Under the pieces are notes generated by a model, which made no database searches, had not been told where the DNA came from, and was given only the letters and a program-made list of their open reading frames with translations. A stretch of DNA of 64,000 bases from Chthonomonas calidirosea (lineage in GTDB: Bacteria; Armatimonadota; Fimbriimonadia; Fimbriimonadales; Fimbriimonadaceae), in contig CAMAPH010000002.1 of NCBI GenBank assembly GCA_945859975.1, forward strand, positions 96,001 to 160,000. Direction: 5' to 3'. Positions 7,204 through 17,344 of the stretch are shown in pieces. Numbering within the stretch: position 1 is the first letter of the stretch; the number at the start of each line of letters is the position of its first letter. A program made the translations under genes and the position numbers.

Positions 7204-7234
7204 ATTGCTCCTGTTTTCTCGGAAGCCTTCGGCA

Positions 7235-7370
7235 ACAAAAAAGCCCCTGCCCAAACCGAAGGACAGAGACGTGTGCGAGGCGAACCTCCAACGTATTCTC
7301 TTGTATCCCCTCGGCGGGCCGATCCTTGCGAATCGCTTAAGGCAATTAAGCCACCTGCTGTCTCCAGAGT
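7235..7370 (-). promoter_or_regulatory. ribosomal protein L10 leader (autogenous attenuator)
   Basis: Minus strand GAGACAGCAGGTGG...TTAA...CCCGCCGAGG core matches the L10 leader, followed by a terminator-like hairpin with T6 upstream of rplJ. Confidence 0.85.
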
Positions 7371-7411
7371 TCGTAAGAGTATGACACGAGCGATGCCGCA
7401 GAATGCAACAC

Positions 7412-10211: not shown

Positions 10212-10377
10212 GGACTTATTATGAACATGGATTGGCTTCAGCGAAGTTTGAAGCTAGCGGAGACCGTCGTCTTGAAGTACGGCGATTCCGGTGCGTACTG
10301 CAAGGACTTTGTTTAAGTTTGCTTGCACGACAAATTTTCTGATTACGCAGGGTCGGTTTCGCCGTCTTGATGATGTG

Positions 10378-11400
10378 ATGAAAATTGCGGTATTGGCGGG
10401 TGTTCTTTTGGGGATCAGCGGGGATTGCCTGGCCAGTGGTCCAGTGCTACCTATCCCGGCGAGCAACATTTTGTTCAGCCACCGGATTAATGCGCAGCAA
10501 CCTGATCTGATCGTGGACAAGTTCGAAGCCAACAACGAAAACGTCCGAGGGGTTCTACGAAGCCTCTTTAAAAAGATGGGAGTTGCGGGCTACACGATTG
10601 ATCCCACAGTTCAGGGGAACGTGACGCTATCACTATCACGAATTTCGTTAAATACCGCTTTAGAATCATTAGTGCGTCAGGTTGATGCGACTTTTAGGGT
10701 CGAGGATGGGATTTACCAAGTACTGAGGAAGGAACCTTCGCCAAGTCCCGTGTCCACGACTCTAAACAAAACAGGGATACGATGGGTTAGCTACGAAGAC
10801 CCCGAACTCAGAACTCTGGTCCAAAAAGCACCAGTCGGAGACGAGGTTGGAGAGAAACTGATCACGATCGGATCGGGTTCCGATGAAGACATTCGTGACT
10901 TCCTTTCTCGAATCTTTTCCGAAGCATACGTGTCGTTCGTACTCAGCCCGAAAATTGAAGGTAAGGCGTATTGCACATTTAACTCGATGAAGCTGAAGGA
11001 TGTTCTAGCTGTCCTAGGCGAAGTTCACGGGTTTCACGCGGAGTTGCGAGCGGGTTGCTACGTTCTGCAGCCAACCCTTCAGGTGGCGGTGAATCTCGCT
11101 CCCTCCAAAAGCAGCCGCATTCTGGTTCTTGACGGCGGCACGGTGGAGCTAATGGCGTCCCCCAGGGCGAGCACGGCAGGAAAATTACCGGCAAAGCGAC
11201 TGCGGTCCGTCCCGGTCGCGGATGAGATCACCGCGCTGTTTCGACAAATGAACGCGAAGTACCGCATCTCTCCGAACTTGCCAAAGATTTCCGGGAACCT
11301 CCCCAGCGAATCTAAAGCGTCAAGGTTGTATCGACTCAAGAATCTTGCCAACGTGAGCGTGAAGCTTGAAAATGGCGTCTACGTAGTTCGACCAAAGTGA
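10378..11400 (+). CDS. secreted protein with repeated STN/secretin N-terminal-like domains
   Basis: VRGVLRSLFK...YTIDPTVQGNVTLSL...ALESLVRQVDATFRVEDGIYQV repeated; no secretin barrel. Confidence 0.7.
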   Translation: MKIAVLAGVLLGISGDCLASGPVLPIPASNILFSHRINAQQPDLIVDKFEANNENVRGVLRSLFKKMGVAGYTIDPTVQGNVTLSLSRISLNTALESLVRQVDATFRVEDGIYQVLRKEPSPSPVSTTLNKTGIRWVSYEDPELRTLVQKAPVGDEVGEKLITIGSGSDEDIRDFLSRIFSEAYVSFVLSPKIEGKAYCTFNSMKLKDVLAVLGEVHGFHAELRAGCYVLQPTLQVAVNLAPSKSSRILVLDGGTVELMASPRASTAGKLPAKRLRSVPVADEITALFRQMNAKYRISPNLPKISGNLPSESKASRLYRLKNLANVSVKLENGVYVVRPK

Positions 11401-11549: not shown

Positions 11550-12461
11550 ATGCGAGCGGTCTGTGTTGCTCTGTTTGTTTTTGGTGTTTTGTCGAACGGT
11601 TTTGGAGATATAGCCCCGATCTCCGGTCAAGCCCCGGTGCTGGTTACTTACAAAACTCAAGGGGCAGAGGTTCGCGAGGTCCTTCGCGAACTGTTTCGGC
11701 AGGCCAAGGTCAGCGGATATACGATCGATCCCGATGTGCAGGGCAAGGTCCAGTTCTCGGCTGCGAAAGTGCAGATTGATGTTGCGCTTGCATCCGTTCT
11801 AACTCAAGTGGGCGCGACGTTTTCCGCTGAGAACAACGAATACCGAATCTTCTCGAAGCAGCAAGCCGCAATCCAGACGACGGAAGCCCCTGGTTTTGAA
11901 GCCAAACGTGCGAGCTTCAGCTTCAGTGGCGAAGATTTAGAAGCGGTTGTTGCTCACATTTTTAGCGAGTTCGATCAGAGCTTTGTGATGAGCTCAAAGA
12001 TCCAAGGCAAAGTAACACTGATCTTCAACTACGTCACCCTTCCGGTCGCTCTGGATCGCCTTGGCCGCGCTTGCGGATTTACGTATGAGTTGAAGGACAC
12101 CGTCTACACCTTGTTGCCTTCCCAAACGAGCGCACCGCTTGGAATGGAAAGCGCTTTGCCTGGGTTCTCCGAGCGACTGGCGACCACGACTTTAGCCGAC
12201 CAGAAGGGCATTCAAAAGGAAGTCCCGGCCAGTTCGGGACAGTTTGTCGCCCTTACCTTCACTGATCGCCGCGCTTCCGATCTCTTTGCCGAGACCTTTG
12301 CCCAAATGCGACTGCGGGTAAAAATCATGCCCGGACTTACGCAGAAACTGAGCGGCTACTTTGCCGCCGGAAGTTTTGAGTCGCGACTCTACGAACTCAA
12401 GACCCTCGCGAACGCCAAGGTCACCCTCGAAAAAGGCGTTCACGTCGTGCGGCCACGCTGA
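11550..12461 (+). CDS. paralogous STN-repeat secreted protein
   Basis: YTIDPDVQGKV...; C-terminus SRLYELKTLANAKVTLEKGVHVVRPR parallels the upstream paralogue. Confidence 0.7.
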   Translation: MRAVCVALFVFGVLSNGFGDIAPISGQAPVLVTYKTQGAEVREVLRELFRQAKVSGYTIDPDVQGKVQFSAAKVQIDVALASVLTQVGATFSAENNEYRIFSKQQAAIQTTEAPGFEAKRASFSFSGEDLEAVVAHIFSEFDQSFVMSSKIQGKVTLIFNYVTLPVALDRLGRACGFTYELKDTVYTLLPSQTSAPLGMESALPGFSERLATTTLADQKGIQKEVPASSGQFVALTFTDRRASDLFAETFAQMRLRVKIMPGLTQKLSGYFAAGSFESRLYELKTLANAKVTLEKGVHVVRPR

Positions 12462-12932: not shown

Positions 12933-14081
12933 TTGGCAGGAGTAGCGTTCAAAAGCGTAACAAAGGTGTACGGTAAGGACGTCAAGGCGGTCAGCGACCT
13001 CAACCTCGACATCCAAGATCAAGAGTTCATGGTCCTCGTCGGGCCTTCAGGCTGCGGAAAAACCACCGCCCTGAGAATGATCGCCGGCTTGGAAGAAGCG
13101 ACCGGTGGAGACATCATGATCGGCGACGTTCGCGTCAACGACGTTCCGCCAAAGGATCGAGACATAGCGATGGTTTTCCAAAACTACGCGCTCTATCCGC
13201 ACATGAACGTGTACGACAACATCGCGTTCGGTCTTCGGCTTCGAGAACTCAAGAGCTTCTTCTGGCAAATCACCCATTTGGCCGAAGCCAAGACGATCAA
13301 GGAAGACATCGACAAGCGGGTCAAAGAAGTTGCCCGTATGCTGGACATCGAGAAGTACCTCCATCGAAAGCCGAAGGAACTCTCAGGCGGTCAACGACAG
13401 CGTGTCGCTCTTGCGCGAGCCATCGTCCGAAAGCCGAAAGTCTTCTTGATGGACGAGCCGCTATCGAACCTGGACGCAAAGCTCCGCGTTCAAACTCGAG
13501 CCGAGCTCATTCGACTTCACCGCCAGCTCGGAATCACGACCGTATATGTCACCCACGACCAGGTCGAGGCCATGACGATGGGCCAGCGAATGGCCATCAT
13601 GCGCGACGGCATCCTCCAGCAGTGCGATCAGCCTGAAAAGGTCTATCAGTACCCGGCAAACAAGTTCGTTGCGGGCTTTATCGGCTCTCCTCCGATGAAC
13701 TTCATCGATGCTGAGATTCGCATGGAGAACGGTGTCGCGATTGTTGACGCCGGGGAGTTCAAGCTTCCGGTGCCAGATGGCAATCCTGCAGCTCACATGA
13801 GCGGCAAAAAGATCACCCTCGGCATTCGCGCTGAAGACATTCACGACGCTGCCATTCCAAGCAACGTGGTTGCGACCGATGCGAATAGCGTCCAGGCAAC
13901 CGTTGACGTAATGGAACCACTCGGCCACGAGTACGTTGCTTATCTGAAGATCGGCAAGATCAACCTAGTTGCTGCCATCAGCAACGAGAGTAAGGTCCGC
14001 GTCACCGAAGTCGCCAAGTTCGTGGTCAACCTTGACCGCGTACACCTCTTCGATGCCGAGACCGAACAGGCAATCCGCTAA
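12933..14081 (+). CDS. sugar/sn-glycerol-3-phosphate ABC transporter ATP-binding protein (MalK/UgpC family)
   Basis: GPSGCGKT, LSGGQRQR, DEPLSNLD, TOBE domain; TATAAT at 12900 and AGGAG RBS. Confidence 0.95.
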   Translation: MAGVAFKSVTKVYGKDVKAVSDLNLDIQDQEFMVLVGPSGCGKTTALRMIAGLEEATGGDIMIGDVRVNDVPPKDRDIAMVFQNYALYPHMNVYDNIAFGLRLRELKSFFWQITHLAEAKTIKEDIDKRVKEVARMLDIEKYLHRKPKELSGGQRQRVALARAIVRKPKVFLMDEPLSNLDAKLRVQTRAELIRLHRQLGITTVYVTHDQVEAMTMGQRMAIMRDGILQQCDQPEKVYQYPANKFVAGFIGSPPMNFIDAEIRMENGVAIVDAGEFKLPVPDGNPAAHMSGKKITLGIRAEDIHDAAIPSNVVATDANSVQATVDVMEPLGHEYVAYLKIGKINLVAAISNESKVRVTEVAKFVVNLDRVHLFDAETEQAIR

Positions 14082-14095
14082 GAAACCTGAATCCT

Positions 14096-14134
14096 AAAAG
14101 CGCGAGGTGAACCTAGGTTCCCTCGCGCTTTTTT
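14096..14134. terminator. bidirectional intrinsic terminator
   Basis: AAAAGCGCGAGG...CCTCGCGCTTTTTT between the convergent ABC ATPase gene and the candidate ncRNA. Confidence 0.85.
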
Positions 14135-14147
14135 GCGTCTTCTGTTT

Positions 14148-14343
14148 CCCCTAAGGGCGACGACGGGACTGACCGCGGGAAGAGTCTTGATGTTTAAGGT
14201 TTGAGGATTGAAGTCACGAACTTTGAGTTTTGAGGCCATAGGCCGCTTGATCAGGTTCAATGATTCTTGTCAAGAATCAGCCAGGATTCGATGTTGATCG
14301 AAGGTGCTAAGTCAGTCGTATTCCGTCAATCGCCCTTAGAGGC
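14148..14343 (-). ncRNA. candidate structured ncRNA with 7-nt repeat tract, downstream of a DIP1984-like gene
   Basis: Closing stem 14342-14310 / 14174-14148 (about 27 bp, three G.U pairs valid only on -); three inner hairpins; seven UYAA-type heptamers; TAGAAT at 14355-14350. Confidence 0.7.
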
Positions 14344-14363
14344 GGCTTCATTCTATCGGTTTT

Positions 14364-14813
14364 TCACTCGGAAAACTCAATGGAAACGGTGGCGTTGTGC
14401 TCGTCCAGACGATCCTGAAGTTCGTCGATCTCCGCTTCAAGCCGCGATACTTCTTCTTCGACTTCGCGGGCGGAAAGGGTCGCGATGTACTCCTGCGGTT
14501 CCTGCATTCCGTACGGTTGCATGAACTTTCCCGACGTGGTCGGAATCCTCCGCAAGAAGCTGATGTGACTCTTCAGTTCCCCGATGCGATAGATCGTCTC
14601 CTGAATCGGAGCATTGGCGAGGCTAATTGCCGCTTTCAATTTCACGAGCGCCTCAGTTGCATTTCGGAGTTCAGCGAGACTTGCCGCCACATCAAACTCT
14701 TCCCTGCCGCCAACGAGGCGCGAATTGTGAGCGGTCACGATGCCCTGAAGCTTTTGAATCTTCGCCACTTGGCGATTCTTGAGCTTCAGGGCTTTCGCGA
14801 GCGAGATTGCCAT
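14364..14813 (-). CDS. DIP1984/DUF6847-like coiled-coil protein (149 aa)
   Basis: MAISLAKALKLKNRQVAKIQKLQ...LKAAISLAN...EIDELQDRLDEHNATVSIEF resembles the DIP1984 helical-hairpin pattern; ATG 14813 overlaps the S8 stop (TAATG). Confidence 0.7.
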   Translation of the reverse strand: MAISLAKALKLKNRQVAKIQKLQGIVTAHNSRLVGGREEFDVAASLAELRNATEALVKLKAAISLANAPIQETIYRIGELKSHISFLRRIPTTSGKFMQPYGMQEPQEYIATLSAREVEEEVSRLEAEIDELQDRLDEHNATVSIEFSE

Positions 14814-17344
14814 TACTGGACGGTAACCCAGACCGATGTGCTCGCCGAACCGAACTGAACGGTTCCGCGGGTGAACTTCCAGCAGGACTGATAGAGGCCA
14901 ACGGTGTTCGGCGCCGTGAGTCGAGCCTGAACCGTGATCGTTTGGCCAGGTGCAACGTTGCTTCCGGGCGGCATTCCGAGGCGGCTCTTGCCGAATGTGG
15001 TCGACCCCACGGGCATTGAGGTCAGCGCAAGGCGCTGCACATCCGCCGAGGTCCAGTTCTGCGTACCGGCGTTTCGGAACGTGAACGCGACCGTGAAGAC
15101 TTGCCCCGGTGCGACCGTGTTCGGAACCTGCTGGGAAACAAACGCGGCATCCCATTCGGTGTTGACCGACATTGGGACCGAAATCGTCGTGGTCGTTCCG
15201 TTACCGTTGGTAACCGTTAGCGTTGCGTAGAGTTTTGCGCTAGGCGTGATAGCGGCATGATTCAGCACGACTTCATTGCTGGTCGGAGCAATTTCGGTGT
15301 TCGCGACAACATCGCCTGCGCCAGCCGTTCGACCAATCTTGATCTGGTACTTCTCGATTCCCGTCTCGGTGTCGTATGCCCAGAGCTTGAATCGAGTCGC
15401 CGAGTAGGCGCCACCCGTCGGGACGCCTTCCCAGTTGGAAAAAGCAAATCGATCCACGATCGGCGCGGTGTCATCACCGGTGTAAGTTCCGCACCAGAAG
15501 TCCGTCGCCGGTGCATCGCTGCCCGAAATGACTTCGACGCGCCGGACCTTAGTCTTCCCAAAGGCCACCGCGGTTACGGTGTACATGCCCGGTGCCAGCT
15601 GGTCGTATCGGTACGTACCGTTAGCAAGCGTCGAGGTTTGGTAGGTGATCGTGCCACCGTCCTTCTTAGCGCGAACCGTAGCGTTGCCTTGTGCAGTGCC
15701 TTCGTTGTAGACGATTCCTTCGATTGCCCCGGCGGTAGCTCCTCGGGAGTCCGCATCCTGCAACAGATAGTAAGCATCAAGCGAGCCGTAACCCTGGTGG
15801 GTCTCCCAAGAGCCTTTCGGTGCGCCGTACACGCTCAGTGCCGACCGCTGCAAGGCTCGATAGGCCCGAAGGTTCTGCATGCCCTGAGCTCGATCCATAT
15901 CGTTCTTGCCGTAGTACAAGCTTGCCGCGCCCGCGACGATCGGGCTCGCCATCGATGTTCCAATCAAGTAGCCGTAGCCAAGGTCATATCCTGGCGCCCC
16001 GACGTCCATGATCGGGTTATGGGTGGTCATCGTGGTGGAGTAGATGTACGCCAGCATCGCGATCGGGTCTTCGATGTTGCTGTAATCGAGGATGATGTTT
16101 CCTCCTGGTGCAGCGAGGTCGATGTACGAACCGGTTCCCGCGTAGTAGTCCGAGGCATGGATGTAGCCGTAGCCGTTCGCGGTGACCGCGAAAGCGCCAC
16201 TGCAAGCCGCAGGATAAATCGGCCCTAAGTCACCGCCACCGGCGCCGTCCTCGTTACAAGCCACCACGACGAGGACTCCCTTCTGCCAGGCGTAGGTCAC
16301 CGCGTCCTGGAAGAGCTGCGAGAAGTTTTCCGTGCCAAGGCTAAGGTTGATGATGTCCACGCCATGATCGGTCGCGTAGAAAATCGCGCCCGCCGCATCG
16401 GCGTCTGAGCCGTTTCCGGTGTCATCGAAAACGCGGAGATTGATTCCCTTGCTTGGATAGCCGAGCCCGACGATTCCCTTTCCGTTCCAGTTTCCGTTGT
16501 TCCCAGAAGCAAGGGCAAGTCCGGTGACGTGAGTGCCGTGCCCCATCGCATCTTCGGTGGATCCTTCTTGCAGAACTTCGCCAAAGCTGAACTGGGCGTC
16601 CAGGCTCAAATCGAACTGCCCGCCTTCTTCGATGCTGCTGTCAAATCCCCCGGCGTTGATGAAGTCCGGGTGTTGTCGCTCAACTCCGGTGTCGATGACC
16701 GCGATCATCGGCACGTTCTGTGGTTTGTCGGCGCTCGTAAACCATCGATTGGGCCAATCGTTCCAAGCATCGAAAGCGCTGGTCTCGTCGAGATACCAGA
16801 GCCGGCGATACGTGACGCCCTCTCCGAGCGGAATCATTGGCTCTCCGATTTCAATAACGTTCCAGTCCCCGTCATTGGGCTCTGGCAAGAGCGGATAAAT
16901 TTTGTTGAGCGGCTGTGCCGCCACGACGTTTGGTTTGCCCTTCAGGCTTGCCGCGACCGCCTTGGGATCCTCGCCCTTTCCGAGTTGCCATACCGTCCAG
17001 CCGGACCGCTGAATCCGGTTTCGAAAATTCTCGGAGCGCAATCCGGTAGGCACAAAACGAGCGCGCGTCGCTTCGGTTTTCGTTAGCTCTGCCGCAACCT
17101 TGGTCGGAAACTTGACCAAAACGTAGCCAGGAACGATCTCGTTCTTGCGCTTCGCGGGAATGTTTCGCTTCAAGATGCTTCGCAAAACCAATCCCAGTGG
17201 TTTCGGTGCAAAAATAGAAACGGCCGGATTACCGATGACTCGGCTTCTCCGTCCTAGCGATTCGCTCACGGGACCAACGGTCTGGGCGGGAGCAACGGCA
17301 ACCAGAAATAGGCTTGCAGCCAAACTCAAAACTCTAAAATTCAT
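14813..17344 (-). CDS. S8 serine peptidase with carboxypeptidase-regulatory-like and NBR1-type Ig domains
   Basis: Signal peptide; VIDTGV, HGTHVTG, GTSMASP triad; C-terminal DAAFVSQQVP...NAGTQNW...AP...G.Y...W. Confidence 0.92.
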   Translation of the reverse strand: MNFRVLSLAASLFLVAVAPAQTVGPVSESLGRRSRVIGNPAVSIFAPKPLGLVLRSILKRNIPAKRKNEIVPGYVLVKFPTKVAAELTKTEATRARFVPTGLRSENFRNRIQRSGWTVWQLGKGEDPKAVAASLKGKPNVVAAQPLNKIYPLLPEPNDGDWNVIEIGEPMIPLGEGVTYRRLWYLDETSAFDAWNDWPNRWFTSADKPQNVPMIAVIDTGVERQHPDFINAGGFDSSIEEGGQFDLSLDAQFSFGEVLQEGSTEDAMGHGTHVTGLALASGNNGNWNGKGIVGLGYPSKGINLRVFDDTGNGSDADAAGAIFYATDHGVDIINLSLGTENFSQLFQDAVTYAWQKGVLVVVACNEDGAGGGDLGPIYPAACSGAFAVTANGYGYIHASDYYAGTGSYIDLAAPGGNIILDYSNIEDPIAMLAYIYSTTMTTHNPIMDVGAPGYDLGYGYLIGTSMASPIVAGAASLYYGKNDMDRAQGMQNLRAYRALQRSALSVYGAPKGSWETHQGYGSLDAYYLLQDADSRGATAGAIEGIVYNEGTAQGNATVRAKKDGGTITYQTSTLANGTYRYDQLAPGMYTVTAVAFGKTKVRRVEVISGSDAPATDFWCGTYTGDDTAPIVDRFAFSNWEGVPTGGAYSATRFKLWAYDTETGIEKYQIKIGRTAGAGDVVANTEIAPTSNEVVLNHAAITPSAKLYATLTVTNGNGTTTTISVPMSVNTEWDAAFVSQQVPNTVAPGQVFTVAFTFRNAGTQNWTSADVQRLALTSMPVGSTTFGKSRLGMPPGSNVAPGQTITVQARLTAPNTVGLYQSCWKFTRGTVQFGSASTSVWVTVQ

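Follow-up and report, generated by a model that had tools for sequence, protein, structure and literature searches.

Ro60 (Rsr, TROVE) and the bacterial Y RNA (YrlA) are among the closest described counterparts of the locus treated here. The Y RNA is encoded beside the protein gene, its 5' and 3' ends form a long stem with a functional module inside, and the pair is found in bacteria and phages near RNA repair genes of the RtcB type, as set out in two sources (PMC4201824; PMC7824862). According to section 3.4.9 of the latter, Ro60-Y RNA is the only known protein-RNA platform in the islands of tRNA and RNA-repair genes that large phages carry; the 149-aa protein considered below goes unmentioned in that section, and the term 'coiled-coil' is absent from the text of the paper (PMC7824862). 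Our locus resembles Ro60/Y RNA in having a protein gene and an RNA side by side, a long end-to-end stem (27 bp here), an occurrence in phages and a vicinity to RtcB. It differs in that the protein is a 149-aa coiled-coil predicted dimer and not a TROVE ring, in giving no match to the Y RNAs of Rfam, and in its inner module, which is an array of heptamers.

ToxI, the RNA of ToxIN-type type III toxin-antitoxin systems, carries repeats of ~34-36 nt, lies upstream of the toxin gene and is cut into units by the endoribonuclease toxin. The present locus likewise combines a small protein with a repetitive RNA, and both are common on mobile elements, but here the units are of 7 nt, lie downstream of the gene and inside one clamp, and the predicted protein fold is the rod of 3KDQ. 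A short motif that recurs with constant spacing in a single-stranded RNA also recalls the targets of TRAP (GAG/UAG repeats), HutP (UAG-N4 repeats, with a period of 7) and CsrA (CsrB/RsmZ), and an oligomer that offers several identical binding sites would suit such a motif. These proteins have unrelated folds, however, and their RNAs are leaders or sponges rather than clamps tied to the gene of their own protein. ROOL and GOLLD are structured RNAs that often occur in phages and lie beside tRNA genes, GOLLD being found in lake metagenomes; both are of ~600-800 nt and are not known to have a linked protein gene. Neither of their Rfam models matches the element described here or its homologues.

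Architecture of the RNA element

The window, i.e., the whole 64,000-nt stretch of DNA analysed, carries on its minus strand a structured RNA of ~195 nt (14148..14342 from 5' arm to 3' arm), supported by folding, by a pair-by-pair check and by the covariance model R3, which scores it at 138 bits. Both ends are joined in a closing stem, P1, with its 5' arm at 14310..14342 and its 3' arm at 14148..14174. The outer segment pairs CCUCUAAGGGCGA with UCGCCCUUAGGGG (14342-14330 with 14160-14148, 13 bp), the middle segment UGACGG with CCGUCG (14328-14323 with 14166-14161, 6 bp) and the inner segment GACUGACU with GGUCAGUC (14317-14310 with 14174-14167, 8 bp), which gives 27 bp in total with three G.U pairs, one in each segment. 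Enclosed by P1 are three small hairpins. P2 (UUCGAU-caac-AUCGAA, 14287..14302) is found by folding and by the pair-by-pair check, and in the alignment of full-length matches described below (A6) all 6 pairs of the corresponding helix change on both sides. P3 (UGAUUCUU-gac-AAGAAUCA, 14261..14279) and P4 (GGCC-uau-GGCC, 14234..14244) are found in both ways as well; the former is variable or absent in other clades and the latter is present only in some relatives, its helix 5 being gap-rich. A single-stranded tract of eight 7-nt units (14178..14233) follows P4, and a G+C-rich hairpin, found by folding (14096..14134, minus strand), separates the RNA from a convergent ABC ATPase gene. All of these elements, from the stem with its hairpins and heptamer tract to the hairpin downstream, had been proposed in an initial annotation of the locus, and every one of them lies where it was proposed.

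The 274-nt region folds with a minimum free energy of -94.3 kcal/mol as compared with -66.4 +/- 4.7 kcal/mol for shuffled sequences (n=200; z = -6.0), and no shuffle equals it. The plus strand of the region also gives a strong fold (z = -4.6), so that folding energy alone cannot fix the strand.

Covariation and strand

Covariation in the closing stem is strong. A first covariance model, seeded on the structure in the window, yielded 15 full-length matches (A6), in which 91.1% of the P1 cells are paired vs. 39-45% when the 3' partner is slid, and 44 of 45 pairs change on both sides. The second model, R3, contains the closing stem only and yielded 26 matches, with 90.9% of the cells paired (38-45% slid) and covariation in 27 of 27 pairs. 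With filters off, R3 adds nine RNAs from Fimbriimonadaceae and Verrucomicrobiota-type loci and no further match in 96 kb at E<=0.05. In these nine (A11), none of which was used to build the model, 84.9% of the cells are paired (42-49% slid) and 26 of 27 pairs covary, although all these counts come from alignments that were fitted to the model and are biased towards the structure. The raw sequences likewise pair, e.g., GGGGAC with GUCCCC, AGAGUGGAGGG with CCCUUCCACUCU, CACGGCUGGC with GCCAGCCGUG, GGUGCGCGGUGGC with GCUGCCGCGCACC and GGGAACAGC with GCUGUUUCC. G.U pairs are far more frequent than A.C pairs (112 vs. 11 in A10; 19 vs. 8 in A11), which indicates an RNA read from the strand of the gene; the strand call made earlier from the three G.U pairs in the window therefore holds family-wide.

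Several other approaches were less informative. MAFFT and RNAalifold on eight Fimbriimonadaceae RNAs returned 0 pairs, the alignment being too poor. A model built from the window and one near-identical relative (R1) gave 63 matches with filters off, few of them real, as it matches any long hairpin. A duplex-energy z-score of the arms failed to tell real sequences from shuffled ones (9 of 70 RNAs below -3), and the number of MFE pairs enclosing the tract exceeded all 8 shuffles in 17 of 65 RNAs; both statistics were badly designed and constitute no argument against the stem.

The heptamer tract

In the window the eight units read UCAAAAC UCAAAGU UCGUGAC UUCAAUC CUCAAAC CUUAAAC AUCAAGA CUCUUCC, and the consensus unit of the family is Y-U-C-A-A-R-N. 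When 45 tracts were aligned (MAFFT), the eight units came to lie in register, an invariant A recurred at intervals of 7 nt, and unit number and order were kept throughout. The U at unit position 2 reaches only 60%, in a consensus matrix that was built from units picked for AA. The tract in the window scores 22.7 against this matrix, the 99th percentile of 284 window chunks being 11.8. With 11.8 as threshold, a tract was found at 70 of 75 loci, taken without deduplication from genomes, phage records and IMG/VR; this set excludes two loci with flanks that were too short and L070-L072, which matched weakly or in part. As the matrix was trained on these tracts, the argument is carried by the controls, i.e., upstream flanks with a maximum of 9.0 and antisense sequences with a median of 2.3. 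Among loci at or below the threshold, one (L068) was recovered by the structural model and three (L081, L089, L091) have variant tracts by eye, while at one phage locus (L082) no tract was seen within 450 nt.

A tract model based on sequence only, R2, has one match in each of the nine genomes that carry the gene among 61 related ones, always beside the gene. It also matches 11 genomes of the same genus that lack the gene. These were considered as candidate orphan copies of the RNA and rejected, as all 8 sites inspected are perfect tandem heptamers, (CTCAAGG)n, (CCTCAAT)n, (CGCAAGC)n or (CGCTCAA)n, directly 3' of unrelated genes. Heptamer microsatellites with the YCAAR pattern occur in 8 of 46 genomes of the genus (reversed control, 9 of 46). 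Because microsatellites carry the same unit, the heptamer alone is not specific to the RNA.

Origin of the RNA

The initial annotation gave the RNA a promoter of its own, with a TAGAAT hexamer (14350..14355, minus strand) as -10 box and G14343 as +1. The hexamer is present, 8 nt past the stop codon, and is kept in a 97%-identical relative; its promoter role is unsupported. A pattern scan of 13900-15100 revealed no sigma-70-like promoter and no -35/-10 pair. In relatives the R3 match starts between -9 and +32 nt from the end of the stop codon, and the 5' arm, which begins 3 nt after the start of the match, at about -6 to +35 nt. In most clades a promoter could not be accommodated ahead of a stem that starts so near the stop codon, and the TAGAAT spacing is missing there; the proposal of a separate promoter was consequently abandoned and the hexamer in the window is probably fortuitous. 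Since the stem starts about at the stop codon in relatives, the RNA probably arises by processing from the 3' end of the transcript of the gene itself.

The 14134-14096 hairpin had been interpreted as a terminator. The hairpin is there, but its function as a terminator is less certain, as it was not listed by a terminator scan. Its U-run on the minus strand consists of four U; on the plus strand, on which it lies behind the convergent ABC ATPase gene, it carries a run of T6, and it is probably a two-way terminator. Many copies in relatives are also followed by terminator-like hairpins.

Each of four lake or freshwater metatranscriptomes (4 of 4, from four studies) contains a single contig of 151-161 nt that matches the RNA with 2 differences; these contigs cover 14151-14324 only, end before the 14134-14096 hairpin, and give no RNA ends, strand or level, DNA contamination being possible. 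The RNA part predicted by the initial annotation is accordingly present alone, at this level of identity, in all four runs. From the coding sequence there is one 92%-identical piece in one run (14695-14880), which leaves 14325-14694 free of contigs but is no evidence that the coding sequence is untranscribed, and from the neighbouring ABC gene only contigs that are ~95% alike. Such a distribution of contigs is compatible with a stable RNA that persists longer than its mRNA.

The protein and its gene

The RNA follows a gene for a DIP1984/DUF6847-like coiled-coil protein (14364..14813, minus strand, 149 aa, stop codon included). Its ATG overlaps the TAA of an upstream S8 peptidase gene of 847 aa (TAATG). 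The genes around it in the window, i.e., an ABM monooxygenase-like gene, the MalK-type ABC ATPase gene and the S8 peptidase gene, are ordinary chromosomal ones, and an L10 leader was located at 7228-7385 by the Rfam scan.

The DIP1984-like label given in the initial annotation stands as far as the fold is concerned, while the protein scores below both curated cut-offs. NCBIfam DIP1984_fam (NF038048) gives 33.5 bits (cut-off 70) and Pfam DUF6847 (PF20935) 19.3 bits (cut-off 27). Residues 5-143 nevertheless align with profile positions 2-147 of 149 in DIP1984_fam, which corresponds to a full-length single domain of equal length, and the DUF6847 alignment likewise spans the whole protein. NF038048 is matched by 35 of 47 family members at E<=0.001, and PF20935 is present in 8 of 24 close relatives of the protein. 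An AlphaFold2 model from an alignment of 47 sequences (pLDDT 93.3) has helices at 5-29, 42-88 and 115-142 together with short strands. With Foldseek the sole match at E<=0.001 is 3KDQ (E = 5e-4, TM 0.71/0.70), the uncharacterised Corynebacterium diphtheriae protein DIP1984. This entry was reached by fold search only, a profile search of PDB sequences having returned no DIP1984 entry at E<=1.

Structure prediction gives a homodimer with an ipSAE of 0.70 (best control 0.00), a contact agreement between runs of at least 100% and a partner pLDDT of at least 88. Of 30 solved pairs 20 attain the mark applied, as does one of 23 single chains, and the pass may stem from memorisation by the predictor because a similar complex (3KDQ) has already been solved. 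The protein is therefore predicted to be a small, dimer-forming coiled-coil of the DIP1984/DUF6847 fold. Its invariant basic N-terminus (K7, A8, L9, K10, K12, and N13; region K7-R14) lies outside the predicted dimer interface.

Distribution and genomic context

The gene was found in 9 of 61 related genomes, its own included (8 of 36 of the same genus, none of 24 from the rest of the order). All 8 intact homologues within the genus, which share 43-97% protein identity, are followed by a comparable element of 184-197 nt, and these elements have a common plan with differing stem sequence. A scan of one genome per species extended the set to 56 loci from Fimbriimonadaceae, Gemmataceae, Isosphaeraceae, Planctomycetaceae and Verrucomicrobiota plus four oddly labelled single bins (a delta-proteobacterium, a Pacearchaeota, a Sulfotelmatobacter and a Bifidobacterium), the labels of which may be binning errors. 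The gene is also present in two huge GenBank phages and in 21 IMG/VR contigs of up to 340 kb, and a tblastn search of plasmids with the protein gave no match at E<=0.01. The RNA always lies downstream of the gene and on the same strand. At one locus a small ORF (L075) and at two others an extra palindrome (L029, L039) is found between gene and RNA. At L017 the gene has in-frame stops (3 TGA, 1 TAG) and the RNA is kept, which suggests that the RNA could work without the protein. The RNA is thus a conserved family linked to one protein subfamily, and the earlier view of gene and RNA as one two-part unit is borne out by its recurrence across phyla and phages and by the downstream element of the homologues.

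At the gathering score, no family of Rfam 15 matches the element in the window. When a 551-nt region was searched at E<=10, the best matches reached 13-19 bits, i.e., chance level as compared with cut-offs of 40-80, and the homologous RNAs of 20 other loci had no match either. The RNA class is new to Rfam, as the initial annotation, which recognised no named family, had suspected. A MITE scattered independently of the gene had been named there as one of the alternatives. The element is single-copy in its own 3.1-Mb genome (one copy by BLAST, and one by R3 at E<=1), and in 9 of 9 relatives with the gene the one tract match lies beside it.

At phage-type loci the module keeps company with genes for tRNA and RNA repair. 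Same-strand tRNA genes flank it at 12 of 55 genome or phage loci and at 7 of 21 IMG/VR loci, with up to 18 tRNA genes at one locus, and Rfam adds a further tRNA-flanked locus (L051). RtcB adjoins the module at L050 and, in partial form, at L033 and L062. Other neighbours are an RNA ligase (L083, L092), a directly upstream AAA_33/KTI12-like kinase (L083), cRec domains (L082, L083), Metallophos domains, i.e., calcineurin-like phosphoesterases (L077, L092), an RNA-binding domain of the poly(A) polymerase/CCA type (L090) and a PP-loop ATPase (L085). At L061 a TROVE/Ro60 gene is found directly upstream, the only one among ~153 neighbouring ORFs scanned. Such components are contained in large-phage tRNA and RNA-repair islands as described in section 3.4.9 of PMC7824862. 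The chromosomal loci scanned (8 from Fimbriimonadaceae and Planctomycetota, and the window) adjoin unrelated genes, none of them for tRNA or repair. In the genome of the window, which is 95.8% complete, no TROVE gene was found and the only RtcB gene is located on another contig. It is conceivable, in view of these chromosomal loci, that the link to repair holds only for the phages or that it reflects a general hotspot for gene insertion.

Discussion

The gene and the ~195-nt RNA would, as we see it, make up a conserved two-part module in which the 3' end of the gene's transcript gives rise to the RNA. The latter may be regarded as a clamp, in which the long closing stem of both ends and one to three small hairpins would hold out a single-stranded array of six to nine YUCAARN heptamers. 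It would be trimmed from the mRNA and accumulate alone. Several copies of the protein might then sit on the heptamer array through the basic N-terminal helix and thereby form a ribonucleoprotein particle. That the dimeric protein binds the array in this manner is drawn from linkage alone, and we consider the arguments for and against it to be about evenly balanced. Since the module lies in tRNA and RNA-repair islands of phages, the particle, if it exists, would most likely act on tRNA or damaged RNA in the conflict between phage and host. Such a role in tRNA or RNA-damage conflict is possible but doubtful, and in the present Fimbriimonadaceae chromosome the module stands alone. It is tempting to speculate further that this is an undescribed ribonucleoprotein, widespread in bacteria and large phages, in which DUF6847 dimers occupy eight tRNA-loop-like heptamers held by the clamp. 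Its task where the cleavage and repair of tRNA are contested would be that of a decoy, a sensor or a scaffold, and it would parallel Ro60-Y RNA in function while consisting of unrelated parts. This complete picture is offered quite tentatively, and its probability is rather low. The module is filed as new because membership tests for known kinds failed, rather than on a demonstrated mechanism. If it is what it appears to be, large phages likely have in it a new component of their islands of tRNA and RNA-repair genes; it adds a class of RNA that Rfam lacks, and eight 7-nt units within a clamp are a simple architecture suited to binding and structural work.

The element could instead be a purely cis-acting 3'UTR without any function as a free RNA, which protects or destabilises its mRNA or mediates feedback on its own gene, e.g., by the protein binding its own message. 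A stem that begins at or just past the stop codon, ahead of a terminator-like hairpin, and an element that is always downstream on the same strand are what such a 3'UTR would look like. However, the four metatranscriptomes with the RNA and not the coding sequence, the small ORF or extra palindrome interposed at three loci and the retention of the RNA beside a gene with in-frame stops are at odds with it, and an eight-unit periodic array in a 27-bp clamp exceeds the needs of a 3' stabiliser. We regard a purely cis-acting role as unlikely. The decay of the gene at L017, which the RNA outlasts, also agrees with an RNA that is itself the active part and has another partner. In this case the heptamers, as sponge or decoy, would sequester some factor of host or phage origin that recognises YUCAAR-like loops, for instance an enzyme or nuclease directed at the loops of tRNA, and the protein would be a helper or functionally unrelated. 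The Y-U-C-A-A-R-N unit presumably fits the anticodon-loop pattern Y32-U33-NNN-R37 and also resembles the T-loop UUCRA, and the module resides in phage tRNA arrays beside repair genes. Against this, the U at unit position 2 is present in only 60% of the units, the matrix having come from units picked for AA, and the tight linkage to one protein family across phyla is left unexplained. A tRNA-like domain in the RNA was considered in the same connection and rejected, because a T-arm-like hairpin (UUCRANN loop, stem >=4 bp) is present in only 2 of 70 RNAs. Another partner for the RNA thus appears improbable to about the same degree as the cis-acting 3'UTR.

Compared with these two, an organisation like that of type III toxin-antitoxin systems, in which the protein would be the toxin and the repeat RNA its antitoxin, is a much weaker candidate and in our view very unlikely. 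The analogy was drawn in the initial annotation, and it is true that a small protein gene adjoins a repeat-bearing RNA and that members of the family are often met in phages and in mobile contexts, but the defining features fail: the repeats are of 7 nt and not ~36 nt, they lie downstream and not upstream behind a terminator, and the protein has a coiled-coil rod fold like 3KDQ, with no nuclease fold among the Foldseek matches at E<=0.001. The gene moreover belongs to a core region close to the L10 leader, and its translation is coupled to that of a peptidase gene. Least credible of all is a feature of the DNA only, i.e., a palindromic repeat, a MITE or the decayed remnant of a heptamer microsatellite, none of which would function as RNA. 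The plus strand folds well too and heptamer microsatellites are common in the genus, yet the element occurs once in its genome, compensatory changes preserve its pairing despite the sequence divergence between phyla, the excess of G.U over A.C and the conserved number and order of units would not be expected, and the element is present in RNA libraries.

The protein family is large, comprising 2053 clusters at 50% identity in a profile search at E<=0.001, and members are ~130-210 aa long in all of the 150 matches listed. The ESM Atlas clusters nearest to the 149-aa protein are 86-98% viral. DIP1984, DUF6847 and PF20935 found no mention in the literature searched. A structured RNA that one subfamily always carries gives this large and mostly viral family a testable handle. 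An ESM Atlas cluster named 'putative Septicolysin' is 100% PF20935, and some records and annotations label the protein family 'septicolysin'.

Integrity of the module and its genomic surroundings

One homologue of the coiled-coil protein gene (locus L017, G015:C142:4572-4988) carries three TGA codons and one TAG codon in frame, and despite these stops the RNA downstream is retained, scoring 83 bits with R3, the covariance model of the RNA. The gene may be decaying while its RNA survives, or the stops may reflect a sequencing or recoding issue. In the huge phage LR756511.1 gene and RNA are separated by a small ORF that encodes about 28 amino acids and is rich in lysine (MAKGKTPKKEPKK..., L075:3466-3560). 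In two Gemmataceae loci (L029 and L039) a long palindrome, almost perfect, intervenes between them in the first ~100 nt after the stop codon and looks like a REP-like insertion.

In several loci the module is flanked by tRNA arrays, and the arrangement Ala, Asp, Pro, Arg, Asn, Ile, gene, RNA, Phe is repeated across bins assigned to different phyla, which suggests mis-binning of a phage or other mobile element. The arrays of L043, L048, L069, L081, and L055 contain unusual anticodons, among them Phe-AAA, Ile-TAT and the CTA of suppressor-like genes, which ARAGORN names tRNA-Pyl. On the minus strand of two further loci (L034:3069-3161 and L066:3061-3153) the same program called an odd "tRNA-???" whose anticodon has two bases; both calls lie within the RNA element, on the opposite strand, and are most likely false calls caused by its stems. 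In a contig labeled "delta proteobacterium" (L060) the module has a group II intron domain (965-1104) and a SAM-alpha riboswitch (1478-1553) on its upstream side and a gene for SAM synthetase on its downstream side.

The window itself contains a ribosomal protein L10 leader at 7228-7385 on the minus strand (Rfam RF00557, 48.2 bits), which shows that it is core chromosome. On the plus strand, a pair of paralogous ORFs (10291-11400, 369 amino acids, and 11550-12461, 303 amino acids) gave no Pfam matches, and their C-terminal ends are alike (...NGVYVVRPK and ...KGVHVVRPR).

Heptamer microsatellites in the genus

Long, perfect heptamer microsatellites were found in other species of the genus at eight places (L097-L104: G017:C56, G009:C56, G016:C462, G003:C8, G017:C4, G018:C130, G032:C205, and G003:C4), where they lie a few bases 3' of the stop codons of unrelated genes. 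One array holds about 60 copies of CCTCAAT, and in two arrays a short sequence that could pair with the repeat as its complement comes before it. In L103 a hairpin-rich element occurs twice in tandem and terminates in a (CGCTMAA)n array.
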